Assembly (NCBI GenBank): GCA_036172245.1
Contig: JAYWIR010000013.1
Span: 4,340,001 to 4,404,000 of the forward strand
Length of the DNA: 64,000 nt
DNA from: Raillietiella orientalis
Lineage: Eukaryota
Reading direction: 5' to 3'
Shown here: in pieces, positions 4,940 through 55,500 of the stretch
Numbering within the stretch: the stretch's first letter is position 1
How the letters are laid out: every line of letters starts with the position of its first letter
Made by a program: the position numbers and the translations under genes
Notes under the pieces: generated by a model
Told to the model about the DNA's origin: nothing
Databases searched by the model: none
The model's input: only the letters and a program-made list of their open reading frames with translations

Positions 4940-5330
4940 TTAGCAGCCACATGGACGCGGACAGCCGTGGTGACATGCGCAAATGCCTCCACAAGAGACC
5001 AGCCGGGAGGGGGTGCCATGCACTTAATGAGGATCGCCGCGAGATGGCCCCCTCCGCATCTGAGAAACGATGAGTGCCAACTTGCCGGCACTCTCAAAGG
5101 AAGAACGGAACGGAGCGTCCTGCTCCGTGATCCCTTCCCGATCCCCCATAAAGGAACAATTTTCCAACTTTTTTTTGTTTTCTCATGTTTTTCCCATCTT
5201 CCGTGCCCTCGCACTGAACCCAAATGGCGAGCGGGAGAGAACTTCCGCACCTGGAGGAACGACTGTCCAGCCAAAATGGTCCGTTTCTTTGCCAAAAGGG
5301 AACGCACGCCCCGGCGCACCCGGGTTGGAA
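4940..5330 (+). mobile_element. Degenerate 3'-terminal LINE fragment (ORF2 tail, 3' UTR, terminal hairpin)
   Basis: HLMRIAARWP resembles the ORF2 C-terminal 'FMRRAARWP'. GTGATCCCTTCCCG also occurs in the 3' UTRs at about 11539 and 36389. A T-tract is followed by the terminal hairpin CGCCCCGG-CGCAC-CCGGGTT at 5307-5326. Confidence 0.75.
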
Positions 5331-6429
5331 ACCCGGAAGAAGAGAGGTCGGAGGCTGCAGGCATTCTGCACCCTTACTGTGCAACGACAAGCGTCTCCGA
5401 CAAGTTCGAAAGTCTCCCCTGCCCCCCCACCTTTCCTTTCCTTCGAAACGGATCGTCTCGTTCGCTCGCGCTTCGAACTCGCGCAGCAAGAGCCGCGGGC
5501 GTCGATGAATCTTCCCTTTCCTCTCCTTTTCCTTTTCGTTCTTCTTCCGCTGGTTTCCGGCAGCGGGACGGATGATCACTTGCTCGTTTGCTGCCTTCAC
5601 TGGACGATGCAGCGACGTTCCCACCCGGTGACGTCATGGCGCGTATCTCGCGCAATAAGAGTCTCGGATCGAGAAACGACAAGGTCGAGGAAAGCGATCG
5701 GTTCGACGAAACGCCTGTCAGCAACACTCCAGCTCCGGAGCGGAAGCCAAGGGTCCCATGGGAAGTAGAAGGAAACGTGTGGAAAGAAGGGGATCGCTGG
5801 TAGTTGACGTCCGTACCACCGTGGAACGGGAACGGAGCGCAGGATGCGTCCCCGATGGCTTTCTCTCTCGGACGAGGACGGCACGTTGCAGTCCGCACGA
5901 AGGCGGTCGCCACCTCCGTATCTCCGCGCCCGCAACTCCAACACATGGCGCCGGCGCGCAGCCACGAAGAAGCAGATGCCACACTGCACCTCCTCACATG
6001 ACGAGAGTGCGCACCCGCGTGCGAAGAGAGTGGCAGCCGCACGTATGCTGGGAAAGTCCGCCGGATGCGGCTATCCGTGAACCCGCAGTTCTTCGAGCAC
6101 ACCGCAGTCCACCACAGCAGCAGCAGGAACGATCGAGCGTCCGGCAAGCGGAACACTTCAAGCACGCGATTTCCTTGAAAAAAAAAGTGTGCGCACACGA
6201 TACTCACGCGGGGAAGGCGGGAGAAGAGGGAGCTTCGGATCAGGGAACCATGTCCGCGATCTTTCACCCCACCCTCCTCACCTTTCCTTCGCTCGTTTCC
6301 CCACACCGGCTTTCCTTTCATCGGGCAAGGAACACTTTCCGACCGTTCCCAGAGGCGCTCGAAGCAGGAACGGAAGACGCGGCACCCGCAGATCCCGCAG
6401 GCACTTTTTGCTCCCGTTTTTCCGGACCG

Positions 6430-7125: not shown

Positions 7126-7128
7126 GTT

Positions 7129-10600: not shown

Positions 10601-11768
10601 AGACCATACTGTGGCTCTATGCTGCGACGCATCTTTGGTGCGGTTCGGGAGAACGCCTGGATCTCCTGCCTCCCAGGGAACTACTCCGCCTGGTTGCACG
10701 AGTCAGTCTCCACCTGGGAAAAGATCCACGTTCCGGCGGGCACAAGGAACACTTGTATGAAAAGGCACGCCCGCTGGACGCTGCAGGAGATCGTGCAGTC
10801 CCACGACAAGCTTCTGTGGGCCTTGATAACCCCCCTCGCCCCAGTGCTGCCCTTCCTTGTGAATGCCAGGGACAGTAGCGAGCAGGGGAAATGGACCGTG
10901 TCCTGCACTATAGGCGGCAGGGCACAATCGATAAAGGCGTGGACATCTCGGCAGCTAGCTGACGCTGCGACGCCGAGTGTCCCGCCCAACGGAATTGGAC
11001 GCTGGGGCGAGCTACTCGGACTGTCTCCGGAGGAGATGAAGTGGCCCCCAGCGTCCTGGAACAGTGCATCCCTCCCCCTGAAATGGCAGGATGTGGCGTT
11101 GCTTGTGGTACTCTGGGGATTACCATTCAAAGCACGCCTGCACCACACCACCCGGGGGGCTGTGGATCCCAATTGTGACCGGTGTGGGGAAAAAGAAACA
11201 TTCCCCCACCTTCTCCTTGAGTGCAGCGCCCTCCGCCCTTTGTGGGATCGTCTCGCGGCGATCCTGGACTTGCGCGGATGCGGCCCAAAGGACGTTTACA
11301 GGCGCCTCTTCTGTAGTGACGCCTTGTCCCCGCCCGCTAGTGTAGCAGTCCTCTGCTGCATCAGAGGAATAGTGGCGGCTCGGAACGCCACCAGAAGAAG
11401 GCGTCAGCCAACCGGCAACGCCTTACACTGGACTCGCCTTTTCGCGCGCAGTGTCTGCAAGTGGCGCCACTTGGGCGCTGAAAGGACTCAGCTTGTGCGG
11501 ATCCTGAATAGGATCTAGAGGACCTTTCCACGCGCACCGTGATCCCTTCCCGGCCCTCCCACCCCTACAACATTTGTTACCCCCCACATTTGAACTTTTT
11601 GTTTCTTTTTGTTTTTCTTTATTTCCCATCCCCGCGCACCGGAAGGACCTCTCCGGCATGGAGCCGGTAACCAGCAAGCTGTTTTGCAGTGGTGAACCTT
11701 CGAGTTCGCCACGCGACATTTCATGTATTTTTATTTCAAGGAAATAAATGCCCCGGCACATCCGGGTG
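7673..11768 (+). mobile_element. LINE (F4-related), 5'-truncated in ORF1, with complete ORF2 and 3' terminus
   Basis: ORF1 tail to 7953, ORF2 from 7962, T-rich UTR, terminal AATAAA-hairpin 11743-11768. Confidence 0.93.
7962..11518 (+). pseudogene. ORF2 APE-RT-Zn finger with one frameshift near 9600-9650
   Basis: WNVNGL, LQETH, NLYAP, GDFN, SDH; DLHKAFD, GIRQGDSLSP, YADD, KYLG; CDRCGEKETFPHLLLEC. Confidence 0.92.
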
Positions 11769-11772
11769 TGAA

Positions 11773-16705: not shown

Positions 16706-16933
16706 AAGGAAGGAACGGATTTACCAAAGACCCCTGTCCCCTGCCCTCCATATTTTTCTTTTATTTTTTTATATAGTAGTGTGTTTGTGGTCCCTTCCCT
16801 CCCCTTCCGGACTTTCGGCACACCGACCTGCGTGTCGGGGATCCCACCCCCTTCGTCTCTTGTTTTCCCCTTTGTCCGGGAACCCTGTTCCCGGATAGTT
16901 TATAATAAACGCCCCAACGCACCCGGGTGACAA

Positions 16934-17393
16934 CCAGCCGCCCCCCTGCGATCCTCTCGATCTCCTGGGAGTTCTCCCCGGTGATCACGTGGATCTCCTG
17001 CAGGAGTGCCAGGTCGAAGTCACGCAGGGTGGAGGTCGTGCTACGTCTGTTGCCGTCGTCACGCATCCCGTTCACGTTACAGCAGTCCACGCGTAATTGA
17101 CGGCGACAGGCGAGCTCAGGTGTTATTACTGGGTAAGTAGCAATGGGGATCCCGCCACCTGGTCGGGCGGGACGGATAGAGGAATGGAATCACCGCGCAC
17201 CAGTTCTCCCACCTCCATGGGGGCCGATTCCTCAGCGGATCGCAACGGTTGAAGGGAGCATGCTTAACGCACCTGCTTCCCCTCTTCCATGGGGGCCGAT
17301 TCCTCGACTGCGTTGGACGACAGGGGGTAGCGGTTCTCAGCTGTCTGCTCCCCCTCTTTCATGACCATCTTCTCCGCAGGCTCCACCGGTGGT
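16934..17393 (-). mobile_element. F3 fragment: ORF1 end and APE N-terminus
   Basis: PMEEG repeats, then NVNGMRDDGNRR...LALLQEIH...IAGGRL; bounded on both sides by 3' termini of other elements. Confidence 0.85.
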
Positions 17394-17396
17394 CTA

Positions 17397-20300
17397 CACC
17401 CGGGTACGCCCGAGGCGTTTATTTTTAAAAAACTCTACATCCGCGGTACAAGGCCCCGCTCACGGCCATATGCACTGGACCTGCCGGGACGCCGGGACGC
17501 AGCCCAGCGTAGCGTTCCTCAGCAGCGAAAGGGGATGGGGATAAAACAAAAATAAAAATAAAAAATAAACAGACAAAAAGAAGTTGGAGGACAGGGAAGG
17601 GATCACTGAAAGCTGTGAAAAGGGCCCATCCGTTGAAGGAAGCCTTCAAGGTCCGTCCGTATATTCCCCAGCTGGGGCCATCCGGCAGCTCTCCGCATGA
17701 AGCGTTGGGCGTATGGGATGACATCCCTCGCGTGTGGACCCACTCCTTCGTTATTGGCGTCGCTCCATGCCGCCACGATGCCACGGACACAGCACAAGGC
17801 TGCGATGGCTGCGGCTGGCTGCAGTGCGTCCTTCACGAAGAGGGGCCGAAGAACGTCTCTGGGGGTGGTGCACGTAGGGAGCCCGAGGGTCGCCCCTAAC
17901 CGTTCCCAAAGGGGTCGGATGGCAACACAGTCCACAATAAGGTGGGAGAGCGATTCCCGCTCTCTGCACCTGACACACTCAGGATCCACATCTCCCTTTG
18001 TCCAGTGGAAGCGGCGTGCGTTGAAGGGTAAACCCCAGTGCAGCAGTAGCAACGCCGACTCTTGCCACTTAAGGGACAGGATCCTGGATTCCTTCAGTAC
18101 ACGGGCCATTTCAGCACATCCGTAGGGATGGCGAGCAGCTCGCCCCATCTCATCAATTTACGCGGCTGGACGCTCCGGGTCGTGGCGTCCGCCAGTTCTC
18201 TTATGGTCCAGCCGCTTAACATCTTCTCCCTGCCTGCGATCTGGCAGGTGACTTGCCACCTCGGCTTCTGGCAATCCTGAAGCGCCCTCAGGAGGTAGGG
18301 TATCGCCGTAGCAAGGGGGGTCGTCAACGCCCACCTGCGACTCCGGGGAAATTCCAGTATTTCCCGCAGGGCGCGGTTCATATTGTTTCCACTCCTCCGG
18401 TTCTGCTTAGCCCATGTGCCAGCAGACTCCTCCAACCAGGCGGAGGAGTTGGCGGGGCCACAAACCATCCAACCGTTCGTATTCGCCAGGGTTGCTATGC
18501 GTCCAAGCATAAGGCCGCATCTTTGGATCTTCCGGCCAGGGCACAGAAGCAACGACGCGAGTCCTTCGCATCGGGACACACGCCTGGCGAGGAGGCGGGC
18601 CGGAACGCACCAAGGGGTGCTCCACATCTTCGCTGCGATGGCGAGGGTACGCCACCGCAGCTGGATTTCCACGCGCTCCAGCGTTAGGAGGCCAAAGCGG
18701 CCGTCCCGTCGCGGAGCGCACAAGTCCTTCAGAGGGACTCGGGGCCTTCCCTTGCCTTAAAGGGCTATGCGGAGGAGGTCCTTTGTCCTCTTTTTGCATT
18801 CTCTGGGGGCGGTGCAAACAAAAAGCAAGAAGCGGAGGATGGGGTCCGCAAAAGCGTTCCAAACCGCGGCCCGTTCCGGCAAGTGAAACTTGCCTTCCAG
18901 GAACGGGCCGATCGCCGTCTCAACTTTTTGAACACAGCTGGACCACGCTTCCGCAGGGGAGTGGTCACCCAACGGCACACCAAGGTACTTGAGGCACCTC
19001 GCCGTGGGGATCCCCAGATGGACCCATTCCTGCTGCCCTGCCCACGCCGCACCTACTGGCACCACCGACGACTTCGCCCTGTTGACCTGCAGTCCGGTCC
19101 CACGGCTGAGCAGATCGAAGAAGTCTCCGACCGCCTTCGCCGGGGTGGACATAGGTAACAGGAGCAGAAGGTCGTCGGCATAGGCTGCTACGGCGGGCGT
19201 GCCGGGACACCAGCTCGGCAAGGAGGCTAAAGTCACCCTGTAGGCTCTCAGCACGAACTCAAAGTAGGTGCTGAAGAGCAGGGGACTGAGGCTATCTCCC
19301 TGTCTGATGCCCCGCCGCACCGGCACGCCATACACCTTCTGACAACTGAAAAAGATGGAGATAATGGCATTCCGCCAGCAAGAGCGCAAGTAGGTAATCA
19401 AGGAGGGTGGGAAGCCCATGCGACCCAGGAGCTCCAACGAAAGCCCCTGTTCAACACAGTCGAACGCCTTATGGAGATCGACTGCGAGCGCTAAGGCCCC
19501 CTTCCCCGCCCGGGATTCCATTCCCTGCCCTGCTGGCGGCCCCAAAGTGGGGTTGCCGATTTTTCCTTTCCCTTCCTTTTGACACCTCTGCGCGTGCATC
19601 CACGTGCTCGCGAAGAAGAGGTTGGCATCCATACTTCGCCCGGGAACAGCATATGTCTGCTCCGGGCTAATTATGGATTCTGCCACCTGCCCCAGACGCG
19701 AAGCCCATAGCCCGGCAACCTACTTGGCGTCCGTATTCACAGTCGTGATCGGACGCCAGTTGTTCAAATTCCTAAGGTCTCCCCCTTTCGGAAGGAGCCT
19801 CACTCTGGCTGACCGAAACGAGGCGGGAACATCGCCTTCGTCTCGGATCAGCCTTGTCAGCTGAAGTTGCAGGGGTGCCAGCTCTTCCGCGAAGCTCTGA
19901 TGGAACTCCGCGGGCAAGCCGTCTTCCCCTGGAGCTTTCCGCCTCTTGAGCCTTTTGATACCGGGGAGAATTTCGCCGGTGGTAAAAGGCTCATCGAGGC
20001 TTAAGGACTCCTCCTCCCCTATTGCCGCGGCACCATCCGGAAGCAAGAGCCGAGAGGCATCTTGATCCGGGGGCGCCCTGGTGTAAAGGGAGGAATGATA
20101 ACTTCGCACGAGATGCCGTACCGACGCCGGGGACGAACATTTCCGGCCCTGGTCGTCCAGCAAGCTGGCCGACCCGGATTGGCAGGCTTGGCGTTCGGCC
20201 CCGGCGCGGTACTCGGCCAGGCGACGAACATTAGGGGTTCGCTCGCACCTACGGGCCTGAAAATAGGCCCGATTTTTGCGAGGACCCTCGCCGAATCCGA

Positions 20301-20711: not shown

Positions 20712-21024
20712 TTATCACCCGGTCACGCCGGGGCGTTTATTAATAATAATAAACTGGTCAGGGACAATGTCCCCAACCAAGAGAACGATAGAGAACATAG
20801 AAAAATTACCGGCACGCAGGCCTGGTAAACAAACCGCTCGCAGCGTGGGGGGAATGAGGGGAAACAAACAAAAATCAAAAACTGGAGGGAAGGGTAACGG
20901 GTTTTTGGTTAGGCTCCGTACTCACGGGGATTTATACGATGAGCACCTAAAATGTTCCGGAGCCTATGGGGACGCGGGTGTAAAAAGAAAATACAAATTT
21001 AGTTTATGGAGGGTAGGGCAATGA

Positions 21025-24000
21025 TCACCGGGTTGGCCGCTGATGAGAATGTGTAAACCGGCGGTGTATTGCGGCGAGATTCCTCTTTGTCTCCTCTGTC
21101 AAATGAGGCCATCTAGCGGATGCAACCATGTAGAAGGATGCTTTGCTGATTACCTCTTTGTGCTGTCCGTTGATTACCAACGCCTGGCGGACGGAAACTA
21201 TCGCGCGTATGCAACCGATGGTTGCAATCCTTGCGCTTAGTGAAAGCCCGCTCGGCGTGAAGAATCGTCGCAGCAAGTCTCTTGCGGTGTCCACGGGATG
21301 CAATAGTGCTGTTGCCAGCCTACGCCACAGTCTTTGTAGGACACCGCAGTCCAGAAGTAGTTGCGGAATCGACTCCGTCGATCCGCACCGAACGCAGTTC
21401 GCAGACGCAAGTCCCCCGGAGTCACGATGCCAACGCTCGTTGCACTGAAAACCCCAGTGAACGAAAAGCAGCACGACTTGTTTCCAAGCAAGGGGGAGCA
21501 GCGAACTGTCCATACACTGTGGAGGGACTACAAGTTCTTCGGGGGTGACAGCAAGTTCTTCTGCCCACCGGAGGAGTCCCTTTGCAGTAACACGAGGAGT
21601 GGCGGCGTCCGCCAACTCACTTGTCTTCCAGGTGCCAAGGAGTTTGGTTCTTCCCGCTATCGTGCAGGAAACCTCCCCCCTCGCCGGTTGGTAACTGTCG
21701 TTTCTTGCCCTGAGGGCAGACAGCGCTGCGGCAAGAGGCGTGGCAGCCAGGGTAGAAAACTTCACCTCGTCCTGCAGTACTTTTTCCAAGGATCGTGGAA
21801 AAAATTGACGCAGGATCGAAGATCTTCAGGGCGTATTCCTTGGAACGCCGCCCAGGATTCAACAGACTCCTGCCGCCAAGCTTCAAAGTTCATTGGGCGG
21901 CAGGAGATCCACGAGTGTGCTTCCAGAAGTGCGGTCAACTGCCGCAATGGAAAACCGAAACCCCGCTTCCTGTATTGAGTGCCCGGCAAAAGCGAGAGAA
22001 ATCCTCCGCTGCCGGCGCATCTCCGCAGGAGAATGCGAGCTGGCACACACAGGGGGGATGGCCATAGCTGGGCACACAGTGCCAGCAGTCGGAACTGCAC
22101 CTGCAGTCCGATTCGCTCCATTGTCAGGATACCCAAACCAGCATCCCGACGCGGAGCTGACAAATCTTTAAGGCGGATCCTGGATCTCGCCGGACCCCAG
22201 AGAGCGTTCCTGAGCAGGCGCTTAGCCCGCTGTTTTGCCGCATAGGAGGGGTCCAAAACAAAAAACAGGATACGGAGGAGGGGGGCCACAAAGGTGTTCC
22301 AAATAGTCGCCCGTTCCTGCAAGGTAAACTTGCCGTTAAAGAACGGGCTGATGGCCAACTCTGCTTTCTGAAGACAGTCCGCCCACGCTTCGGCTGCGCC
22401 GAAAGCGCCCAACGGAACGCCAAGGTACTTAAAGTACCCGCCCGTGGGGATCCCAAGGCGGATCCAGTCGGACTGCCCCTCCCACGACGTACCCACAGGA
22501 ACGACCACGCTCTTCTCTCTGTTCACGCTCACGCCCAATCCCCGACGAATCAGGTCGAAGAAATCCTCGACACTGGACGCCGGGGTGGACATGGGGAGCA
22601 GAAGAAGCAGGTCATCAGCGTAGGCGGCCACGGCAGGCGTTCCCGGGCAGGAGCTTGGCAAGTGAGACAGCGTCAGCCTGTATGCTCTTAGCACCAACTC
22701 AAAGAAGATGCTGAAGAGCAACGGGCTTAAGCTGTCGCCCTGTCGGATGGTCCTACGAACGGGAATACCATACACGCGGCAGCCGCTAAAAGTGATGCAG
22801 GTTAGCGCGTGGCGCCAGCACGCGCGCAAATACAGCAGGAGTTGCGCCGGGAACCCAAGGCGTTCCATATGCTCCAAAAGCAGCTTCTGGTTTACGCAGT
22901 CGAACGCCTTGTGGAGATCGACCGCGACCGCCAAGGAACCTGGCGTTTCCTCCTGCCGTCGGCGCCTGTTCTTTTTGCCTGCGGCAGTGACTTTCGCAGC
23001 TTCCTGGCTTTGCTGCGCCACAACTTCCTGCAGCTGCATCCATGTACGCGCGAAAAGGATGTTCGCCTCCATGGATCGTCCCGGAACCGCGTAGGTTTGT
23101 TCCGGTCTCACCACAGATTCCGCGATTCTTCCTAACCGCGCGACCCACAGCTTGGAAAACAACTTGACGTCCGAGTTCACCAAGGTGATCGGACGCCAGT
23201 TGTTAAGTTGACGCAAGTCTCCGCCTTTCGGCAGGAGACGCACCTGCGCTGAGCGGAAGGAATCCGGGACATTCCCGGATTCACTCATCAGCGTCGCGAG
23301 TTTCAGCATCAAGGGAATGAGCTCCACTGCAAAGCACTGATAAAACTCTGCAGGGAGCCCATCCTCGCCTGGCGCCTTTCTTCTCTTCAGCCCAGCGATG
23401 GCGGACGAAAATTCATCCGCCGTGAAGGGCTCGTCGAGACGTTCGCGTTCCTCCTCGCCGACAACACGAGCATCCTGAGACATGAGTATCTCAGAAAGAA
23501 TATCCTCCGTCGGGGATTCCGCGTAGAGCGAGGAGTAGTAGCGTCTCACAATGCGGCGTACTTCGGCTGGGGCCGAACATTCCTGGCCCTTGTCGTCCAA
23601 CAGGCATGCTGCTCCGGACTGCCAGACCTGGCGCTCGGCCCTCGCCTTGTACTCTGCGAGGCGCCCGACATCCGCGCGTCTCGAAAACGTGCGGGCCTGC
23701 AGAAAGTCTCTACTGTTGGCCACGCCCTCTCCGAAACCGCGTGGAAGCCGGTGCAAGGGGAATTGGCAACAGAACTCGCGGACAGATCTTTTGAGATCGT
23801 CCCAGTCCGCAAGTTCTTGAATGGCAAAGCCCCGGAGGTATCCACGTAGATGCTCCGCAGCCTCCGGTTGGCTAAGCCAATCCGCTTGCATCCTCCAGCT
23901 TTGCAACGGAGGCCCCCTGCCTGCCGGAAGGATCTCAAACTCCAACCTGTGGTGGTCAGAAAGCTCAGTCAACAATCTTCCTCTCCTACCCACACGCGAA

Positions 24001-26539: not shown

Positions 26540-26600
26540 CGTCGTCAAAATGTACGACGCCAAGATGAAGCGGATGAAAGCACGGAGACGAGAGCGAAGA

Positions 26601-26617
26601 AAAACACGTCCGCACTC
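26601..26617 (-). promoter_or_regulatory. Representative conserved 5'-terminal motif GGACGTGTTTT (putative internal promoter or start element; 6 copies)
   Basis: Lies 6 nt inside the TSD-defined 5' end here and at an equivalent position in five other copies. Confidence 0.55.
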
Positions 26618-35400: not shown

Positions 35401-36610
35401 AGCTACCGGCAAGACGGGACTTACGTCGTTTCTTGCACTTCATCGAAGCCGCATCAACCGATGTGGGCTTCAGCTACGGAGGGTGGCTGCGCTGGCTAGG
35501 AAAAATCAAGGATGGATCACCTGTCTCCCCGCGAACGGTAGTGCCTGGTTGCAGGAAACCGTTCGTACGTGGGGACAGTTCGGCATGCAACCCTCCCATC
35601 AGGAACGAAAGTTCCTGTTTGGGTGTTACAGAAGTTGCACGCTCCGTGAGATCCTGGAGGATCCTAAGAAGAGAGCGTGGTCAGGAAGAACCCCCCTCGC
35701 TGCTGCGCTGGACTCCCTAGTGGAACATCAGGACAGCGATGTTGCGGCGAAGTGGGAGGTTACAATAAAAATCTCCGGGAAGGAGAAGAAGCAGAGAGAG
35801 TGGAAGACGGGCCAGCTAACTGATGCTGCGACCCCGAGTACGCCTCCTAATGGACTTCTGCGCTGGGGAGCGCTGCTGGATGTTCCGATTGAACATCTGA
35901 AGTGGCCCCCGTTTCTTATGAACACTTCCATCCTCCTTCTAAAATGGCAAGAGTCGGCATTCCTGTTGCAGCACTGGGGACTCCCCTGCAACGCCCGTCG
36001 ACACCACTGGACCTGGGGAGCGGTGGATCCCAATTGTGTAAGGTGCAGGGAACGGGAGTCCCTCCCCCACCTCCTAGTGGATTGTGTTGCCCTTCGGCCC
36101 CTTTGGTTCCGCTTTGCCGCGGCGATCGGTATCCCTGGCAGCAACCCCAGGGACGCACTAAAAGCCTTCTTCGTTGCCGACGCCCTGCGGCCAGCGTCCT
36201 CGATAGCAGCCTTGTGCTGCCTTCGTGGGATCGTGGAGCACGGCGACGGGAGGACCTAGCGATCAGGAAGCCATCCAGTGCGCCTCCGAATTCCTGAGGA
36301 GGGCGTCGCGATGGCCCCACCTGGATGTTCACAACAAACAAGAGCTTGCCAGCATCCTGAGAGGTATGATGCGGCCCCAGCAGCAACAGTGATCCCTTCC
36401 CGTTCCCTCCCACCCTTTGTTTTTTTTTTGTTTAGTTTTTTTGTTTTTCCCCTTTCCCCTGCTGCCTTGGTGGACCGTACCGGTCTAGAAACCGGTGAAT
36501 TGGCAGGCGCCGTGGTTCTTAGCTTCTGGCTGGAGCATTGCCACAGCCATTAATAATTTGTTTACAAAGTTTATTTTTTTTAAAAACGACCCGGAGAAAT
36601 CCGGGTGAAA
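32434..36610 (+). mobile_element. F4 LINE 3' part (ORF1 tail, ORF2 32816 to about 36392 with a stop at 33977 and a late frameshift, 3' terminus)
   Basis: TAATG junction 32814-32818; APE, YADD, CVRCRERESLPHLLVDC; terminal hairpin 36587-36607. Confidence 0.93.
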
Positions 36611-41100: not shown

Positions 41101-44100
41101 TCTGCAGGCCCGCTCCTTTTCCAGGCGCGCGGACGTTGGTCGATTATCCGAGTACAAAGCCAAGGCCGAGCGCCAAGTCTGGCAGTCAGGGGCGACAGTT
41201 CTGCTCGACGACCAGGACCGGGAATGCTCGGCTCCAGCCGACGTGCGACGGATAGTGAGGCGCTATGACTCTTCTCTGTATGCAGAGGCACCGACGGAAC
41301 GCAGCCTCTCCCGGCTGCTTCTGCCGATTGATGCACCTGTTGTACACGAGAGGGAACGCGCGCGTCTTGATGAGGCCTTCACGGCAGAGGAAATTTCCTC
41401 GGCCATCTCGGGGCTCAAGAAACGAAAAGTGCCAGGCGAAGATGGACTCCCCACAGAATTCTTTCACTGTTTTGCGGCGGAGCTCATCCCCCTGGTTCTT
41501 CAACTCTCGTCGCTGATGCGAGACGCGGGCGATATCCCCGCCTCGTTTCGCTCAGCGAAGGTGCGTCTACTGCCGAAAGGCGGAGATTTGCGCCAACTGA
41601 CCAACTGGCCTCCGATCACATTAGTGAATTCGGACGTCAAGTTGTTCTGGAAACTTTGGGTGGCGCGGATGGGTAGGATCGCGGAATCCTTGGTAAGTCC
41701 GGAGCATACGTACGCTGTTCCTGGGCGGTCCATGGACGCGAATCTCTTGTTCATCCGCACATGGCTGCAATTGCAGCATCGTGTGGCGGTGGATCGTCGT
41801 GCGGAAGCGACGCCTTCGATCTCTCACCGACGGAGGCGCGGGACGCAAAGGGAGACACCGGGAGCCTTGGCGGTTGCAGTCGATCTGCACAAAGCTTTCG
41901 ATTACGTGAACCAAAAGCTTCTTCTTGAGCTTTTGGAACGTCTGGGTCTTCCGGCATCCCTGTTGGCGTACTTGCGCTCCTGCTGGCGCCACGCGATTAC
42001 ATCCATTGTTTTCAGTGGCTGTGGCGTGTACGGCGTGCCGGTACGACGAGGAATTAGGCAGGGTGACAGCTTAAGCCCGCTACTCTTCAGCATCTATTTT
42101 GAATTGGTGCTGGAGGCTTACAGGCTGACGCTAGCCAACCTGCCGAGCTCCTGTCCAGTCACGCCGGCCGTGGCAGCCTATGCCAACGACCTGCTTCTTC
42201 TGTTGCCCATGTCCACCCCGGCGACATCGCTTGAAGACTTCTTTGAGTTGATTCGTCGCGGTGCGGGCGTGAGCGTTAACAGGAGTAAGTGTATGGTTGT
42301 TCCGGTGGGTGCGACGTGGGAGGGGCAGTCCTACTGGACCAACTTGGAGATCCGCACGGGCAGGTACCTCAGGTACCTTGGCGTGCCGTTGGGCGACTTC
42401 TGCATCTCAGAAGCGTGGTCGGGCTGCCTTCGGAAGGCAGAGCGTGCACTTGGCTCGTTTTCAGGAGGCGAGTTCGTCTTGCCGGAACGGGCCTGTATCT
42501 GGAACACCTTCGTTGCCCCCCTCCTCCGGCCCCTGTTTTTTGTTTGTCCACCCCCCCAGGAAGTCAAAGTCTGGGCGCAGCGCCTTCTACGCAAAGCGTT
42601 GTGGGGCGCTGCAAGATCCCGTGTTAGACTTAAAGACTTGGTGGCGCCGCGTCAGGATGCAGGCTTGGGCATCCTCGACTTAAACAGCAAAGAACTGCAG
42701 GTGCAGTTTCGCATGCTGCGGCTCTGTGCCAAGCTGTGGTGTACGCCGTGGTGCTGACCCGCACGCCTTATACTGAGGCGCTGCACGGGAAGCGAGGGAC
42801 TGCTTTCGTTGCCACCCCACTTTCGGCACACCAGAATAGGGTTTGGCTTCCCGCTGAGGCAGCTGTCCTCACTGCTGGAAGCCCAAAGCTGGATCTCCTG
42901 CCGCCCCATGAACATTAATGCATGGCGACAGGAATCTTTTTCATCGTGGGCAGCTTCCGAAGGAACGCGCCCGCAAGATCTTCGACGCCTGCGACTTCTC
43001 CTCAGTCATCAAATGGACGAAGTCATGGAGGACAAGAAGTTGTCGGATTGTCTGGCCGCCACACGACTCGCCGCAGCGCTGTCTGCCCTGAGGGCAAGCA
43101 ACGACGGTTGCCTACCGGCGGAATGGGAGTTCTCCTGCAAAATAGCGGGAGTCAGTAAGTTCCTCGGCAGCTGGACGACAAAGGAGCTGGTGCAAGCCGC
43201 CACACCTCGGAATCGGGCGAAGGGACTGCTTCGGTGGAGCGAACATTTAAGTGTGCCCCCCGGAGAGATAGTGGTTCCCCCCGTTTGTTTGGACAGCTCC
43301 GTGTTCCCCCTTAAGTGGAAACAAGATGTGCTGCTCTTTTTACATTGTGCATTTCACTGTAATAGGCAGCGAAGCATCGTATCCGGGGGAGCTGCTTTGC
43401 CAAACTGTTTAAGGTGCGGAGAGATCGAGTCTTTTCCGCACCTTTTGCTGGACTGCGGTGACCTCCGGGAACTGTGGCGAAGGCTCACTTCGGCCATCAT
43501 GCCACAAGGAGGCACTGCCATTGATGTGCTGCGGCGCTTCTTCAGCAGAAATGGACTTTCGGTTGGCGCGATTGTCGCAACCATGTGTTGCGTTCGCGCC
43601 ATCGTGAAGGCCCGCTACGCCCAGGAGTTGTCATCGCAGCGAAGGGAGGCTCACCTGCTTGCAACTCAATTCATTTAGGAGGCTTCAAGGTGGTCTCATC
43701 TTCGTGACAAGGTGAATGAGGACATCACCGGCATACATCTCCGGTTTACAGACCTTTGAGAACGGCGTATTCCGGTAACCCCTGCGACCTCTCGCCCACC
43801 CTTACCCCGTCCCCGTTCGCTTGGTGAAATTTCCAGTGCCCATGCTTTTATCCTCGTGTCTTCCAGAGCGATCCCCAAGACCCTTATCCCGTCCTCCTTA
43901 TTCATTGTTGTTATTTTATTTTGGTTTCTTTGTGTTCCCCGCCCCCCCACACCGTTCGCAAAACTGTTACTCTGGCCTACGTGCCAGCAATATTCTCTTC
44001 ATTCTTGTTCAGTCGTCGATTGGGAGTTTGGTTCCCAACTGGTTTATTTTATATAATTGTTTTTTGTTTATATTATATGGAATAAACGCCCCGGCGTTGC

Positions 44101-44110
44101 GAAGTGAGAA
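38166..44110 (+). mobile_element. Full-length degenerate F2 LINE (ORF1 about 38283-40187; ORF2 40187 to about 43759)
   Basis: 5' motif CAGACGTGTTT 38175-38185; TGATG junction 40185-40189; RT motif YAND; several stops; 3' motif 44081-44106. Confidence 0.93.
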
Positions 44111-45975: not shown

Positions 45976-48725
45976 TCAGATCTTAAAAGACTGGGACCTG
46001 TTTAAGGACTTGGTCAGGGAGTTCTGCGGACAATTCTTCCTGGACCGCCTGCCCCCTGGGTGTGGCGAGGGTCCTTGCAACCATCGGGTCTATTTACACT
46101 CCCGTCGGTACGAGAAAACCCCTAACGACCTTCACCTAGCCGAGTACCGCGCCGAAGCCGAACGCCAAGCATTGCAATCCGGGTCGTCCAGTTGCTTCGC
46201 GGCAGAGTTGGCACTCCTGGTACTTTAGTTGACAAGGCTCATCCGATACAAAGGCGACGTTTCCGCCTCGTTTCGGTCAGCCAGAGTGATGCTGCTCATT
46301 CAGGGAGGAGACTTGAGAACACTGAACAATTCGCCTTCGGTCACAATTGTGAAAACCTACGCCAAGCTGATTGCTGGACTGTGGGCTTCGCGTCTAGGAC
46401 AGGTGGCAGACTCCATAATTAGCCCGCAGCAGACAGACGCTGTTCCCGAGCGGAGTATCGATGCCAACCTGTTCTTCGCGAGCGCATGGTTTTATGTGCA
46501 AAAATGTCACCATGAAACCGCGACAAGGATTGCCAGCCCCACTTTGGAACAGCCAGCTGAGCTGGGAACGCATACCGAGGCGAGAAAGGGGGCCGTAGCG
46601 ATCGCAGTCGATCTTCACAAGGCGTTCGACTGCGTGGACCAGGAGCTACTGCTGGTGCTCCTGGGTCGCATGGGCTTCCTATCCTTTCTTCTCTCCTAAC
46701 TGCGCTCTTGCTGGCGAAACGAGCAACTCAACGTCTCCTTAAGCTGACAAACAACGTATGGCATGCCGGTGCGGCGGGGCATACGGCAGGTTGATAGCCT
46801 CAGTCCTCTGCTTTTTAGAACCTACATTGAGTTGGTACTGAGAGCGTACATGGGGACTATGGCTGCCCTGCCCAGCTCGTGCGCCGGCACGCCCGCCGTT
46901 GCAGCATACGCCGACGATCTTCTGCTGATGTTGCCCATGTCCGCTCCGTGAGCCGCAGTCGAGGACTTCTTCGACCTCCCAAGCCGTGGGACTGGATTGC
47001 GGGTAAACAAGGCGAAGTCGTCGGTGGTACCGGTGTGGGCGACGTGGGCTGAACGGACTGACTGGATCCGCTTAAAGATCCCCTCGTCCAGATGCCTGAA
47101 GTAACTGGGTGTCATGTTGGGGGATTTCTGCTTTGCAGAAGCATGATCAGGTCGTCTCCAAAAGGTAGAGTTGGCAATCGGCCCGTTCTTGGAAGACAAG
47201 TCCCTTCAACCAGAAAGGGCAGCGGTGTAAAACGCGTTCGCGGCTCCCATCCTCCGCCCCCTGCTTTTTGTTTGCCCCGTTCGCCATGGGTTGAATAAAA
47301 GGACCAAAGACCTTCTCCGCATCGCCCTCTGGGTCAGCGAAAGGTTACGTGTGCCTCTAAAGGACTAATGTGCTCCGCGTCGGGAAGGCGGTCTTGGCCT
47401 TCTGACGCTGGAGCGTTTGGACATGCAGCTGCGATGGCGCACCCTAGCCATTGCAGCAAAGACATGGAACACCGCTTCTTGCGATCCGGCCAACATCTTC
47501 GCCAGCCGTGTATCCAGGACGCAAGGACTCGCGTCTTTTTCTCTGTGCCTCGGCCGGAAGGTCAGGAGATGCGGCCTTCTCCTTAATCACATGGAGGCTC
47601 TGGTGAGGGAAAATGGCTGGACGGTATGCAGCATTGCCAACTCCCTCGCTTGGCTGGAAAAATCAGTTGGGACGCGGGAGAAGTTGGACCAACCTACCGG
47701 ACATGACTGGAACCACCTGCGATTAGGCCCCAAGGCCTGCTGCATTCTACTGACCACCATGGAGTGTCCCGGCAGGAGCACGTGGGCGGAGACCACCCCT
47801 TTAGCTTCGACGCTGCCCTTCTTACGAAGGGCTCTAACCAGCGGCCGGACAACAAAGTGGCAAGTCTCCTGCCGAATTGCAGGCAGAGAAAACAAGATGA
47901 GCGGTTGGACCATGGGAGAACTGGCAGATGCCACGACCCGAGTGCCCTCCCCTGTGGACTTCAAAGAGGGGGCGAGCTGCTCGGCATCCTGACGGATGAC
48001 CTGAAGTGGCCCCCAGTATTACTCGGATCCAGGCTTCTTCCCCTGAAGTGGTAGGAAACGGCGCTGCTGCTGTTGCACTGGGGTCTACCCTGCAACGCGC
48101 ACCGCTTCCACTGGACACGGGGAAGTGTAAGGCCTGAGTGTGCCAGGTGTGGGGAGCGGGAATCGCTCCCCCACCTTCTCGTTGACTGTGCTGTCTTCCG
48201 ATTCCTATGGGAACGGTTCGGGACGACCCTCGGTCTCCCAATGGGCAGCGCGCTCAGAGAAGTTCTTCAGTTTTTCTTCGTGCGGCACGCCTTGCAGCCC
48301 GTAGCAGCCCTTGCAGCGCTCTGCTGGATCCGATTCATCGTGGCGGCGTGGAGCGATACTCGCGACGTGGGAGTGGATGCCAGCGAGAGGGATGTCATCC
48401 CGTATGCGGTCTGCTTCATGCGGAGAGCTGCGAGATGACCCCAACTGGGAAGCATGAGGATGGACCACAAGTGTGTCCTGCTAAAGATGGACCCTCCTAT
48501 CAATGGATTGTGATCCCTTCTCCTCTCTTCAAACTTTTTTCTGTTTTCGTTTATCTTTATTTTTATTTTTGTTTTCTCCCCCATCCCCCTCTACTGCCGA
48601 GGAGCGTCTTGCCGAGCTGCGTCCCGGCGTCCCGGCACGACCGGTGTTCTGTGGCCTTAATTGGGACCGTATACAACGTTGCTGTAGAGTTTTCAAATAA
48701 GCGCCTTGAAGGTTCCCGGGTGTCA
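45976..48725 (+). mobile_element. Degenerate F3 LINE 3' part with an internal deletion
   Basis: DLHKAFD, YADD, CARCGERESLPHLLVDC; many stops; degenerate terminal motif 48696-48722. Confidence 0.9.
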
Positions 48726-51437
48726 ACCATAAACCCGGAGGGAAGGCAGCCCAGGGGATACTCCTCACAGAACTCGCGAGAGCGAATGCTTGAATGCGTC
48801 TCAATCCTCGAGATTCGGGAGGTTGACGCCTCTCAGGAATTGGCGGAGATGATCCGGCGCACCTGGGAGCCTGGTCCAATCCCCTGGTAGACTCCACGCC
48901 CTGGATGGTGGTCCTTCATGGCGCGGCCAGACATATAACATCAGACGGAAATGGTCGAACAGCGTCGACGAGAGCCTTCCTCGTTTACCGATTCGAGTAC
49001 ACAGGTCTTGGTCGAGGAATACGTTGTCGATGCTGTCCTCCATTTCCGAGTGTCCCTCCATCAAGTTGCGCGCGCGCATGCCGGAGCACAACTCGATCGG
49101 CACGCTCTTTTGCGTGCAGCACGCACCTGAGAGCAGGCGGAGGTTAAAGTTCCCTGCTATCAGGTGGGCCTTGCGCACTTCTGCATCTGTCAGCCTGTCA
49201 CGCTTCAGTTACTGGAAGAACTGAGTTCTTTCCGCGTACCCCTTGCTGCCGCTCGGAGCATACACATTGGTAACGATGAGATCGATCGTGCCGGACCAGC
49301 ATAGAATCATCTGTCCAACACGACCGTGGTCATAGAAGCATATGTTCCTCACGGAGGCGTCGACAGCTGGCTTCAGGAAGAACGCGACACCACGGGAGTT
49401 GCGTTCGCCGCATCGCCAATACAACCGACCTCCTGTGATCCTTTCGATTTCCTCGACGTCTCTTCCAGTGATCAAGTGGATCTCCTGCAGAAGCGCCAGG
49501 TCGAACTCCCGCATGGTGTCGGCTGTATCTCGCCTGTTGCCGTCGTCGCGCAGCCCGTTGACATTCCAACAGGCCACGCATTTCCGACGGCGACAGGCGA
49601 GCTCAGGGGTTAATCCTAAGAACGTGGCAGCGTGGCTCCCGCTACCTTATCGGGCGGGACGGAAGGAGGAGGGGGTGCATCGCGCGCCGCTTCTTCCTCC
49701 TCAATGGAGGCCGATTCGGATACAGGCCTCATCGCGGTTAGGAGGCAGGTATCTCCTACCTGCGCTTCCTCCTCCATGAGGTCCAGTTCGCCAGCTAAGA
49801 CGGTCGGTGGGAGGGGGAGGTTTTTACCTACCTGTTCCCCCTCCTCCATTGGGGTTTACAGCTGTTGGGTCGCGGGTAGTGGAATATTCCCCCCCCTTTT
49901 CTCACGCTGCCGGCTTCCCCCCCGTCTGCCGGCTCGTCCCCATCCTCATTCTTTGTCGGGAGTCGCTTCCTGGGATTCTTGGACTTGCGTTCCTTCTTCT
50001 TTGGAGGCGCCTTTGCAGAGGAGGACTCACTACCGGCATCCCGATCAGTATCTCCTTCTTCAGGTGCCTTCATCGCGACCGGTCTTCTCAAGGCTTTTCG
50101 CGCCGGGATCTCGTGGCCGACAAGTTCAGCCTCGAGCTCTTCCACCGCCTGCTTAAAGGCGACGTCCACGATTACGAACAGCGCGTCGTAAGGCTCCTTC
50201 TCTGTTTTCATAGAGGGTTCTCTTTTGGAAGTCGCGGCTTCCACGCAAACGAGGAGGGGGATATCTCCCCCGGTGGTGAACTCTAAGGCCTCCACGCGCT
50301 CCAAAGTGATTGAGCTTTCGAAGAAAAGTGCGCAGCGCTCTCTCCTATTTAGAAGTTTGGCCTCTGTTTCCGCTTTCGTTTCTTCCGTTTTCTTGGCTTT
50401 CTTTTGCTTCACCGTCCGCCAGCCTTCCTCATCAGCGCCGTCGGGAGTTTTCTCGACCGACGATTGCTGAGAGGGTTCGGGGTCTGGCTTCTGGCTACGC
50501 GTGGATGTAGCCTCCTTCGGCCTCGACGTTTTTTCCGCGCGTATTCTTTGAGCTTTTTTTAAAGCGAGGCGAGCCAGAGTTACGCGCTTTAGGCACAATT
50601 TCCGGAGGTGGCCCTTCTCTCCGCATGAGAAACACTTGATGTATGGGCATCGTTTTTTCCGGTGCCCTGTCGCATCGCAGTGTCCGCAGTGCATAAGTTT
50701 CTTCACGTACCAGACATCGACCTTTCCGTTGGCGACGTCTAGCTTGTGAGGTAACCCACCGTTTTCATGCACGGTTACACGCGCTGCGGCCATGCCACTA
50801 CACAGCCTTCCATAGGATTGTAAGACGTTAGGCTTGCTCCAGAGCGCGTGAACCGTGCCAAACTTGCTAAGTTCCTCCTGCACGCCGGTTTCCCACATGC
50901 TGAGGGTTACTCCCGAAAGATGTCCCCCGCAAGTCTTGCATCCTTACAAGTCAACTCCACCCGCTGACCACCGCTTAACACTGAAAGACCTTTTAACTCT
51001 TCTTCTTTAACATTAAGCCGCTGCAACTCCCTCTTGAAGTTGCGAGCGGTATTTCCAAGGAAGATATTGCCTACCTCATAGATGAGGGACGGCTTGTTCC
51101 CTTGTTCTTTATAGGCTGTTTGTTCGACCATGGAAGCAGCGGATGGTGCTGCAGCCACGGCGCTCCAGGTTCTCGTCGCTGGCGACGATGGCTCCGAGGA
51201 CACGCTTGAACCCTTTTTCAAGGGGACCGATGCCCTCGCCTGGTGGGGGCGATCGTCTTCACCACTATGGGCTGGGGAGAGGAACTAGCCTCTTCTACTC
51301 CAATCTCCATCGCGGTGTCCGCTGGCATTTCTGCCATGGGACACCGACGATGCGCCACACACTCTAACAAACGAGAGGAAATGAAAAAAACTTCCCAAGC
51401 TGAAGCGGTTAGAGTGCAGGAAAAGCACGTCCGCACA
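48726..51437 (-). mobile_element. Degenerate F3 LINE 5' part (5' UTR, ORF1, APE)
   Basis: 5' motif 51426-51432; PSLIYEVG, CGHCDATGHRKKRC, CFSCGEKGHLRKLC; WNVNGL...LQEIH. Confidence 0.9.
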
Positions 51438-52500
51438 GTTCGACGAGGAAGATCGTGTAAGCCAACTAGTCCTCAAGTTGTCCGAATCGATCGACCTTGT
51501 CGTAAAGAACATCTACGCGCCGAGCGGCGGTCGGCATTACGCCCAGCGAATCGCATTTCTGGGTAGCCTGCGCAGCCGCTGACTCTTCGACTCCGTCCCC
51601 AACGTGGCGCACCTCCTTGCAGGAGACTTCAACGTCCACCTGCTAACAGTGGAGAGATGCCGCTTGAGGAAGAAGAAACTGGTGAGAAATGTATGCGCGT
51701 GCGTGCGCGTGCAAAACTTGCTTGCTGGTGAGCCCGGAATGGAGAGATGCCCGGACCATGCGTTTCTTGATGAACACCAGCTCTCACGAGTAGGTCGGAG
51801 AAAGCGCCTGCTGTCCGAGATTTTAGATCATCCGAGACTGGAGTTAGAGATCCTCCCTCCTGGCAAAGGGTCTCCGATGAATGTATGGAGGTTGCCGGCC
51901 GACTGGATTAGCAATTCATAGGCGGCGGAGCATTTTCGCCAGCATTTCCGGGGCTTCTCCATCCGTGAACTCGAGAACTGGGACGATCTGAGAAGATCGA
52001 TCCGCGAGTTCTGCTGCCGGTTTCCCTTGCACCTGCTTCCCTGCGGCTTCGCAGAGGGTGTCGCGAACAGCAGATCCTTTCTGAAGGCACGTACCTTCTA
52101 CCGATGCCCGGACATCCGGCGCCTGGCGGAGGACAAGTCCAGGGCCGAGTGCCAGGTTTGGCAGTCTGGAGCGGCCTGTCTGCTCGATGACGCTGGCCAG
52201 GAATGCTCGGCTGCAGCCGACTTGCACCGCGTAATTATGCGCTACTACTCCTCGATGTACGCGGAGGAGCCCACGGAACGCAGTCTCTCCGAGCAGCTTC
52301 TTCCGACGGGTAACCCTGCTATCGACGAGGAGGAACGCGCCAGATTAGATTGGCCTTTCACGGCGAAAGAAGTATCTTCCGCCATAGCGGGCCTGAAAAG
52401 GCGTAAGGCGCCAGAGGAGGATGGCTTGCTCGCGGAGTTCTTTCAGTGCTTCGCGGCGGAGCTCGTCCTCCTGGTGCTCAGCCTTTGCGCGCTGATGCGG
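51438..52500 (+). mobile_element. F2 internal ORF2 fragment (APE C-half to RT N-terminus)
   Basis: HLLAGDFNV...GFAEGVANSR...KAPEEDGLLAEFFQCF. Confidence 0.88.
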
Positions 52501-55500
52501 TTTGAACCCGGTTGCGCCGGGACGTTTATTTGTAAAAACAAACCACAATCTTGAAGGGAAATTCATCCCTTCAAGATAGAAGAAACGCCCATACATAAAG
52601 TTCAGCCCGGGAGTATCACCGGCAAGCAGGCCGCCTTCGAAAAGAAAGAAACGGAGGGAGAGGGGTACAAAATAAACAAAACATGAGTGAACAAACAAAG
52701 AAACAGTGGAGGGTGGGGTGACGGATCTTTGCCATTAAACGTTCCTCATCTTCTTAGAAGCGCTGTCTTCCGATGGCGACTTCCCTGGAGACTTTTCTGG
52801 GCAGATGAGGCCACCTGACAGCTACCTTCATAAGGTTCGGGGCTATCCTGGCGGCGACCATTCGCTGCGAGCTTCCTTGTAACTTACGGAGGGCCGTTAC
52901 GATGGCGCGTATGCAACAGATTGTTGCGATCACAGCGCCTTTATCCAATCCGTCTTCACTGATGGAGCGTAGCAGCAGGTCGATGACAGTGTCCTGAGGA
53001 CGACGAAGTGCCGAAGCAAGTCTCCGCCATAACTCCCGCAAGTCACTCCACTCAAGGAGCAGGTGCGTAAGCGATTCTATCGCCGCCGCACCTAAAGCAG
53101 TTCGGGGAGACGACTTCTCCTGTAACCAAGTTTCTGCGCTTATTGCACTGAATCCCCAGTGCAGAAAAAGAAGAACATCCTGTTTCCATCGAAGCTGGAA
53201 CACGGAGCTGTCCACACACAAGAAAGGGACCACAAGATCTTCGGGGAGTAATCCAAGAACCTCACTCCAACGAAGAAGTCCCTTTGCCAGGTAACGAGGA
53301 GTGGCAGCGTCTACCAACACGCTCGTTCTGCAGCCGCTCAGCAGTCTTCCCACTCCGGCAATGCTGCAAAAAAACTCCCACCTTGCCGGTTGGCTACTGT
53401 CGTTGTTTGCCCTGAGAGCAGACAGCGCTGCGGCGATGTGTGAGACGACTATCCGGGAACAAAGCAACCAGTCCTGTAGGATCACTCCTAGCGGTTTGCG
53501 TGAAAGGCCCTGTAAGGGTCGCAGTTTCTCTGGGCGCACATCCAAAGTGGACGTCAAGTGCTTCAGAGCTTCCTGCTGCCAAGCATTCCAATTGGAGGGG
53601 CGGCAGGAAATCCAGGAATGGGCTAGCAGCAACGAGAACAAATGCCTCAGTGGATAGCCAAATCGAGTTCTCCGGCGAAGGTTGCGCGGCAGCAACGAAA
53701 GCAATCCTGCACTGCCGACACATCGCTGGAGAATATGGCGAGCCGGAGCACACCAGTGACTAGACCACAATTTCCCATATAGGGATAGAAGCCGGAACTG
53801 CACTTGCAGTCCAATCTCCTGGATGGTCAGGATGCCGAGGCCTGCGTCCTGGCATGACGCCACCAAATCTTTGAGTCGAACCCTGGATCGCGCAGCGCCC
53901 CACAAGACCTTACGTAGGAGACGCTGCGCCCGGAGTTTAACCACATAGGGAGGCGGGCAAACAAAAAATAAGGGGCAAAGAAGGGGGGCAAGGAAAGTGT
54001 TTCATATGCACGCCCTTTCCGACAAGACGAACTTGCCTTCCAGGAACGGGCCTAGAGCCATCTCTGCCTTTTGAAGACAGGCCGACCACGATTCAGACTA
54101 GCAGAAGTCGCTTAACGGAACGCCAAGGTACTTGAAGTACCTGACCGTGAGGATCCCCAAGCAGATAGAGTCGGCCTGCCCTTTTCACGACGCACCCACC
54201 GGCACCACGGAGAACCTCTCCCTGTTAACGCTAATGCCCTCTCCACGACGGATCAGCTCGAAGAAGTCTTCGAACGAGTCCGTCGGAGTGGACATGGGTA
54301 ACAGAAGCAGATGGTCGTTGGCGTATGCTGCCGCGGACGAAGTGCACGGAGAGGCGCTGGGAAGGACGACCAGCGTCAGCCTGTATGCTTTCAGCACCAA
54401 CTCAAAGTAGATGCTTAAGAGCAACGGGCTTAAACTGTCGCCCTGTCTTATGCCTCTGCGCAAGGCCACGCCGCACGCGTGGGAGCCACTGAAATGCAAG
54501 TTGATAAGCGCGTGGCGCCAGCAGGAGCGCAAGTACAAGAGAAGTTGGTTCGGAAGGCTAAGACGCTTAAGGAGCTCCAAGAAAATTCCTGGTCGACGCA
54601 GTCGAATGCTTTACGCAAATCCACTGCTACTGCCAAAGCTCATGGCGTTTCTCCCGTCCGCCCGCACTGGGGCTCGCAGTCGGCAGAAGGTGTAGCCGCT
54701 GTGCGGCTGACCGCCGCAACGTGCTCTTGCAGCTGCCACCAGGTGCGCTACAAAAGAAGGTTTGCATGCATGAATCTAACCGGTACAGCGTAAGACTGCT
54801 GCGGGCTTACCACGGACTCCCGACTTTCCTTGGTCGTATGACACAGCTTGAAAAACAACTTGACGTCCGTATTCACTAACGTGATCGGACGTCAGTTGTT
54901 GAGTTGGAACAGATATCCTCCTTTCAGAAGGAGACGCACTCTCGCTGAGCGGAAGGAAGAAGTGACATCGCCCGTCAACCTCATCAGCGTCGAAAGTCTG
55001 AGCACCATTGGGGCGAGTTACGCAGCGAAGCTCTGATAGAGCTCCGCGGGTAGCCCGTCCTCACCTGGCGTCTTCCGTTTCTTGCGTCCTGCGTTGGCGG
55101 AAGAAAGTTCCTCCAACGAGAAGGGCTCGTGAAGTCGGGAGCGTTCCTCCTTGCCGATGCCTTGTGCACCCCGTAGCAGAAGCAGTTCCGAGAGGATTCT
55201 CTCCGTCAGATATTTGGCGTAGAGTAAAGAGAAGTGACGCCTTAGTGTTCGCAGTACTTCGGAAGGAGCCGAGCATTCCCGGCCCTGGTCGTCGTGCAGA
55301 ATAGCCGCTCCAGACTGCCAGACTTGGCGCTCGGCCCTGGTCTTGTACACTGCGAGGTGCCGGACTTCAGCACGTCTAGACAAGTTGCAGTCATGCATAA
55401 ATTCTCTGCTATTGGCCACGCCTTCTTCAAAACCGCGCGTTTGGAGGTGCATAGGAAACCGGTCTCAAAACTCGCGAGCCGATCTTTGGAGATGGTCACA

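Follow-up and report, generated by a model that had tools for sequence, protein, structure and literature searches.

The DNA analyzed here, a stretch of 64,000 nucleotides (nt) of the Raillietiella orientalis genome (contig JAYWIR010000013.1, positions 4340001-4404000; hereafter the window), is a nest of long interspersed nuclear elements (LINEs), one inserted in another. Across families of these elements, a terminal 30-nt cassette, consisting of AATAAA and a palindrome of the form CCCGG-loop-CCGGGT, has been kept while the upstream untranslated regions (UTRs) diverged. Integrated copies end about 5 nt past CCGGGT, which is 4 nt past the base of the predicted stem. To judge from their sequences, the elements form an isolated radiation of the L1 group, nested in each other, which is probably Tx1-like.

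A shared 3' cassette and a fixed, tail-less end

All genome-wide counts refer to the 210-Mb R. orientalis assembly. The degenerate motif (AATAAA plus CCCGG-loop-CCGGGT) has 2,811 exact matches there, 2,066 of them with an intact core, and a reversed-pattern control gave none. Within the window, the pattern with two mismatches allowed was matched 11 times against 2.9 expected, a number attained in none of 100 shuffles. When ends were located from the C-terminus of open reading frame 2 (ORF2) instead of from the motif, 44 of 54 scored at least 28.5 within 650 nt and 52 of 54 control stretches scored at most 20.5; two controls scored high, and the C1 tiles had been picked for their motif density.

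A detailed sample of 172 ends was examined, which represents about 6% of the genome's ends and is enriched for LINE-dense regions. ORF2 lies upstream of 131 of them, and the UTR of a further 34 matches that of one of these 131, giving 165 LINE ends; the remaining seven are unrelated singletons. No family resembling short interspersed nuclear elements (SINEs) and sharing the tail was present among these 172 ends. Cross-mobilization between families, which the initial annotation of this stretch had considered possible, thus left no sign in the sample, and sharing of the motif among families is explained by common descent.

The same annotation had listed ten 3' ends with this motif in the window. 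All ten strings are indeed present, and nine of them are true LINE ends, located 252-414 nt past the match to the ORF2 C-terminus; the tenth, at 5307, is a look-alike, and another real end with a different hairpin (62585-62622) had been overlooked. These nine ends represent seven families, those at 17423, 32403 and 48696 having 73-92% UTR identity. As had been proposed, the motif is kept where family UTRs differ: the mean identity among window ends is 0.51 for the upstream UTR (0.44 when shuffled) vs 0.72 for the motif. The possibility that the motif is a target site and not an element end was ruled out, since it lies 3' of ORF2 and the UTR and 5' of the duplication.

Target-site duplications, which along with 5' truncation are the marks of target-primed reverse transcription (TPRT), are present in this main lineage. 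A first search, seeded at offsets 8-16 and presupposing no boundary, yielded 38 candidates, 23 of which passed the boundary check; the two copies of the duplication agree at offset 3 in three of these, at offset 4 in 10, and at offsets 5, 6 and 7 in 19, 20 and 21, respectively. A second search, which presupposed a range of offsets, gave 31 cases, and the union of both comprises 39 validated duplications among the 172 ends (one tandem pair was dropped). They are 9-18 bp long, mostly 12-14 bp, and their exact run begins at offset 3 in one, offset 4 in nine and offset 5 in 16; the later start at offsets 6-8 in 13 cases reflects mismatches. Instead of the three to five mostly-A bases described at first, a nearly fixed 5 nt follow CCGGGT, usually with just two A's. 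The tail reads NNNAA in 1,787 of the 2,066 intact cores and NNNA plus a non-A base in 201, the usual form being GNNAA. Its fifth base is A in 24 of the 39 validated cases, and the target base at that position is other than A in 20 of these 24, so that the A's were supplied by the element. In 11 cases, from a family ending in GGCAT, the fifth base is T and the target also has T in nine; the end of this family may lie one base earlier.

The description of these ends as poly(A)-less holds throughout the genome, where at least seven A's within 7 nt were found at only 3 of the 2,811 motif ends. One copy (L106) has GT followed by 15 A's and a 12-bp duplication whose 5' copy does not contain the A-run, as expected of a polyadenylated template, and another (L104) has about one extra A only. 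None of the 39 duplications begins with AA (the first base is C in 18, T in 10, A in 10 and G in one). L1 targets are poly(T)-A junctions (PMC1950540); given the lack of any AA start, L1-type priming from a T-tract on poly(A) is not used here. Excess mismatch at the first duplication bases, which would mark an RNA-templated flank, was not observed (26 and 27 of 31 vs 24-30 elsewhere), in a test of low power.

An Hsc70 of the host shares 87-90% identity with proteins of arthropods, molluscs and annelids, in line with an invertebrate animal. AAUAAA is the canonical poly(A) signal in invertebrate animals, and its surroundings were examined in the sampled ends. The 20 nt preceding AATAAA are 46% T, and TGTA occurs no more than 60 nt upstream in 88 of the 172 ends, vs 18 of 172 in an upstream control interval and 12 downstream. 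The element ends 24-25 nt past the hexamer, which is within the usual cleavage range, and has no downstream U/GU element of its own. The hexamer is also present in the rotifer element Hebe, where 5-25 nt of poly(A) come after it (PMC2861651), the ordinary outcome that is missing in the R. orientalis elements. An Rfam scan of the window returned only U4 and no histone-type or other 3' element; with AATAAA conserved and no match to the Rfam histone stem-loop in the window, the ends are not of the histone-mRNA type.

Insertion targets, endonuclease and relatives

Of the ten real ends in the window, eight adjoin a coding region of another LINE and two adjoin repeated DNA. In three families, a homologous downstream site is common to many members (10 of 21, 5 of 7 and 5 of 6), whereas fewer (3 of 18, 2 of 12) or none share a site in six other families and only 7 of 13,533 between-family pairs do. 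The target hosts are often too diverged for plain duplication, and at least one pair is a duplication. Target preference in the Tx1 clade has been defined as one target type in more than 20% of flanks (PMC4494074), a share exceeded in three families of our sample, enriched as it is for LINE-dense regions. Crocodilian Tx1-Mar and other families of that clade are likewise L1-group LINEs of animals with a preference for fixed sites inside other transposons, often in antisense orientation. Here, however, the targets are sibling LINEs and the head found in a second lineage of this genome is a whole U4 small nuclear RNA (snRNA), while the SINEU partners of Tx1 have poly(A) tails (PMC4494074).

The endonuclease has 43 residues between two catalytic aspartates, where most of 76 other rows have about 61, and is devoid of the T/W...SRLD hairpin segment (e.g., window 23901-24605 (-) and L088:9101-9829 (-)); an AlphaFold model predicts no hairpin at this position. 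The endonucleases of L1, Tx1L and R1 have a DNA minor-groove hairpin, whereas that of the main lineage lacks the segment. In the L1 endonuclease, the loop that is missing here reads the poly(T)-A junction, and its deletion nearly abolishes nicking (PMC1950540).

The initial assignment to L1-clade elements is borne out by domain content, sequence search and fold search. Main-lineage ORF2 contains the Pfam domains Exo_endo_phos and RVT_1, with zf-RVT in one copy and no RNase H match, and the residues of a C-terminal zinc knuckle are conserved (C1071/C1074/H1082/C1087). A PDB sequence search with ORF2 gave E values of 3e-44 to L1 vs 2e-14 to R2, and the AlphaFold model of an intact ORF2 (mean predicted local distance difference test score 81.6) matches human L1 ORF2p over its whole length (fold search 1e-44 vs 3e-19 for R2); PDB covers few LINE clades, and this comparison of L1 with R2 is not a full clade test. 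ORF1 contains three CCHC motifs, its nearest Atlas clusters being zf-CCHC and ZCCHC3-like RNA-binding domain (score 0.94). Tx1-clade ORF1 proteins combine RRM-like domains with CCHC knuckles, and the CCHC knuckles and ZCCHC3-like domain found here are of this type; human L1 ORF1 is not known to contain CCHC knuckles.

A quick tree built from 53 rows places the main families together with one close outside protein in a single clade (support 100), to which the second lineage of the same genome is sister (92); long branches were flagged in this tree, which contains no labelled Tx1 rows and in which the elements of this genome stand on their own long branch. The names of the nearest proteins pointed to no particular clade. 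Among 1.8 billion representatives, only two proteins are more than 60% identical (62% and 65%) and the rest are at most 38% identical. The motif was not found in 80 metagenome loci (20-42% identical), only nine of which extended to the ORF2 stop, so that its absence there carries little weight. At L088:6278-9886 (-), an uninterrupted ORF2 of 1,203 codons was observed in a copy of about 5.7 kb with a 12-bp duplication, which shows that its family has been active recently.

The predicted hairpin and how the end may be set

The majority stem, CCCGG/CCGGG, is present in 20 of 24 UTR clusters, and the other four clusters have two members each. Its loop varies in sequence and in length (4-6 nt), and an extra G-C pair has been gained in one family. 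Pair counts over the 172 ends revealed a two-sided change in 2 of 860 core cells. The stem covariation claimed in the initial annotation is absent: on 48 rows, 481 of 500 shuffles scored at least as high as observed and no core pair had a two-sided change, and RNAalifold did not return a consensus structure for this 48-row alignment. Genome-wide, double CpG transitions were compensatory in 47 cases (32 + 15) and non-compensatory in 62 (35 + 27; p 0.18). A set of 40 C-G to T-A swaps, considered as a covariation excess, was rejected because matched controls showed CpG decay; the innermost-pair swap was seen 12 times in the genome. Nor is there a G-C to A-U swap at 36587, as had been suggested, since the loop is CGAAAT in five of seven members of its family (ORF2 end 89-90% identical), i.e., an unpaired C.U, and the A is a private, one-sided change in that copy. 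Stem invariance neither proves nor disproves an RNA hairpin, and the 4-6-nt loops and the extra G-C pair fit one. Both CpG sites of the stem decay via transitions, often jointly in one copy, and this decay suggests methylation of these repeats in the host.

Among the features of stringent-type LINEs, a cross-family 3' end able to form a stem-loop was found and compensatory stem changes were not. Support at the level of structure comes only from the sister lineage, in which the hairpin sequence differs and the layout with a 4-nt overhang is kept. Its ORF2 is about 27% identical to that of the main families, and its ends consist of AATAAA and another hairpin closing in TGGGG, 4 nt before the duplication. 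This end has 363 matches genome-wide, one of them with at least seven A's. Folded models of both lineages have four unpaired bases at the end, which in the main lineage depends on two weakly kept basal pairs.

The explanation that we favor, and to which we assign about an even chance, is that the element RNA is polyadenylated, ORF2p binds the hairpin, and the start of cDNA is set by a fixed distance from it, so that the tail is skipped. A Pol II transcript would be cleaved and polyadenylated just past the hairpin via the UGUA, U-rich and AAUAAA signal. ORF2p would then recognize the hairpin by sequence and shape and use it as a ruler, and cDNA would start on the nicked target only one or two A's into the tail, without primer-template pairing. 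Each family would have an endonuclease with a particular short target other than a T-tract, and this target would often be a fixed site in a sibling LINE. The conserved cassette, the fixed tail-less end, the non-A priming sites and the canonical signal context all speak for this explanation. Human L1 ORF2p (PDB 8uw3), which has the same domain order and fold as predicted by our model, contacts a template stem-loop that helps define the TPRT start, and its unpairing results in heterogeneous TPRT products (PMC10830416). Human L1 also binds a long poly(A), nicks at TTTT/A and leaves A tails; in the main lineage, A-runs are almost wholly missing from the ends (3 of 2,811) and none of the 39 duplications starts with AA.

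Several observations weigh against polyadenylation followed by measured skipping of the tail. The stem-loop of human L1 is a long poly(A) stretch away from the active site, so the geometry must differ here. The end position is constant just to within about 1 nt, as the T of the GGCAT family equals the target base in most of its cases, and a validated duplication is available for just 39 of the 172 sampled ends. The evidence for poly(A) is a single copy, L106, which slippage on a short A-run could also explain. With covariation absent, the case for an RNA hairpin is one of complementarity and position only; single-end folding z-scores are weak (below -2 in 2 of 11 ends and in 0 of 6), and of the two basal pairs from which the distance of 4 nt is measured, one is disrupted in 11 and the other in 4 of 44 sequences. 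Rather more tentative, in our opinion, and somewhat short of an even chance, is the wider proposal of an L1-group reverse transcriptase (RT) that no longer recognizes poly(A) and has dispensed entirely with priming at T-tracts. It would dock on a hairpin of 5-7 bp and begin cDNA 4 nt beyond the stem, whatever the sequence of the primer, with a hairpin-less endonuclease selecting family-specific sites in sibling LINEs. In that case, a 30-nt cassette would suffice to turn any RNA into a precisely ended template.

An unlikely competitor is that the RNA itself is made to end at +5. After cleavage, the tail would be lost or cut back as far as the hairpin with its bound protein, in the manner of histone mRNA and small RNAs, and the RT would start at the free 3' end like R2, the hairpin protecting and not measuring. 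This would account for the sharp end and the near-total absence of A tails, for primer pairing being unnecessary, and for a terminal C in one sister-lineage subfamily whose target has T in three paired cases. Yet both lineages have kept a complete canonical poly(A) signal, the L106 A-run is absent from its target, and the window scan revealed no match to a histone-type or other Rfam 3' element. In R1Bm and R2, a read-through flank pairs with the primer, and a read-through RNA carrying the parent's downstream flank might likewise anneal to the primer nicked in homologous DNA, giving a fixed 3' end with the target kept. We consider this distinctly improbable. Although the return of families to homologous sites, the family-typical first 3-4 bases of the duplications and the lack of a downstream U/GU element in the element itself are in line with it, the largest family has no constant first duplication base, the one expected to pair with the end of the primer (ACAA 5, CCAG 4, ACAG 3, TCAA 2), many copies in unrelated sequence have the same end, the L106 A-run directly abuts the tail, and endonuclease preference accounts equally well for the targets. 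More improbable still is a palindrome that belongs to a 3'-processing or termination signal or serves as a DNA-level protein site, with the RT ignoring it and starting at the body/poly(A) junction for some other reason: an invariant stem, fused to AATAAA at constant spacing and without an RNAalifold consensus, would agree with this, but the 4-6-nt spacer, the pair gained in one family and the same overhang on another sequence in the sister lineage would not, and the skipped tail would be left unexplained.

The initial suggestion of an RT-recognition or 3'-processing signal therefore stands as the best inference and is strengthened by the fixed end distance, whereas calling such a signal unusual for the clade was an overstatement in view of plant and algal L1 elements (PMC3472496). 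Terminal hairpins across L1-clade families and repeat-less L1 ends have already been published for plants and algae (PMC3472496, PMC3747384, PMC5135761). A conserved terminal stretch of about 45 nt forming a hairpin (divergence 0.144 vs 0.570 overall) is common to families of the monocot L1 lineage "monocot 1a" (LINE1-1_ZM) and to the SINEs of this lineage, and a 3' repeat is lacking in 5 of the 15 L1 families from green algae and in 9 of the 233 from flowering plants (PMC3472496). Monocot 1a resembles the present elements as a group of L1-clade families with a conserved terminal hairpin, which was read as stringent recognition, and differs in its covarying stem and tail-sharing SINEs (PMC3472496); in R. 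orientalis, an animal, the stem is invariant, no SINE was found in the sample, and the end is fixed and tail-less. In UnaL2 (L2), SART1 (R1) and the I factor, a conserved 3' stem-loop is thought or shown to be read by the RT, but these belong to other clades, and their termini, made of tandem repeats (TGTAA, TAA) or of poly(A), vary in length where the tail here is a fixed 5 nt (PMC3747384).

We found no literature description of an animal L1/Tx1 radiation combining a poly(A) signal, an invariant hairpin and a fixed 5-nt end, although Repbase, most subscription papers and supplements may hold such cases. Whether ancestral L1-group elements recognized a specific 3' structure or poly(A) only has so far been debated from plants and algae (PMC3472496). 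The R. orientalis elements add a natural example from an animal, in which thousands of copies end sharply, ORF2 is intact in at least one of them and the hairpin exists in two independent versions. If our explanation is correct, it would also offer a compact way of inserting sequence from an RNA template with a precise end and no tail. LINE annotation that relies on tails would miss such ends.

U4-headed elements and other features of the window

The window contains a full-length sister-lineage LINE (57003..62622, +) that starts with a whole U4 snRNA head at 57003-57139. Its 3' end (62585..62622, +) has AATAAA and the hairpin closing in TGGGG, followed by AAAC (4 nt), and the element lies between the two copies of a 14-bp duplication (56989-57002 and 62623-62636), which differ by two mismatches. 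Genome-wide, 42 U4 matches were scored and 30 fetched; all 30 are followed by a sister-lineage LINE (ORF1 in 29, ORF2 in one), and no stand-alone U4 gene was detected among them. Divergence among the heads (loci L035-L064) reaches about 20%. In the window, as in 6 of 10 paired loci, U4 and the LINE lie together between the copies of the duplication. Seventeen of the 30 U4-headed copies (L038-L062; window 56989-57002) are located at one antisense site in ORF1 of another LINE family, which may reflect repeated targeting or carriage within the host element. U1 or U2 snRNA heads occur in some Tx1 families (PMC4494074). No published description of a U4-headed LINE was found in a search that left Repbase and most subscription literature outside.

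Among the main-lineage elements, a full-length copy of about 5.9 kb (20712..26617, -) is flanked by the 9-bp duplication ATTTCAATC at 26626-26618 and 20711-20703. Its 3' end (20712..20741, -) has the loop CGTGA and the tail GATAA, and its ORF2 (21765..24650, -) encodes an APE endonuclease and a reverse transcriptase, with 962 amino acids open and the C-terminal portion read in a different frame. After its first 6 nt, the element has the shared 5' motif GGACGTGTTT. A motif of the form GGACGTG(T/C)TTT lies a few bases from the start of full-length main-lineage elements; it is found in the window at 26611 (-), 28921 (-), 30316 (-) and 51432 (-) and in about 17 other places. It resembles a downstream promoter element, and the matching initiator would lie in target DNA.

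The other 3' ends are in various states of preservation. The end at 11743..11772 (+), with AATAAA, the loop CACAT and the tail GTGAA, adjoins ORF1 of another LINE in the same orientation, and that at 52501..52530 (-) has the loop CGCAA and the tail TCAAA. A damaged stem (CCCCAA) and the tail GACAA characterize the end at 16904..16933 (+), whose copy is an antisense insertion at endonuclease codon ~86 of another LINE, the preferred site of its family. The 6-bp stem variant with the loop CGTA and the tail GTAGA is present at 17393..17423 (-); the same family is represented at 32403..32433 (+; tail GTAAA) and, in decayed form, at 48696..48726 (+; tail GTCAA). At 36581..36611 (+), a decayed hexamer (TAAAAA), two private hairpin changes and the tail GAAAA were observed in a copy that interrupts another LINE, in antisense orientation, at its RT "AFD" codons. 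The end at 44081..44110 (+), with a decayed 3' arm and the tail GAGAA, lies antisense within the endonuclease codons of another LINE.

The look-alike at 5307 was rejected both as a 3' end and as a tiny insertion: it has no AATAAA and no LINE UTR or ORF2 upstream, and a 75%-identical copy of the surrounding repeat elsewhere aligns across the site without the motif, which places the look-alike within another repeat. The repeat around it (4900-6500) is of low copy number, has an ORF-like start, is unrelated to the sampled LINEs and has 14 further partial matches in the genome.

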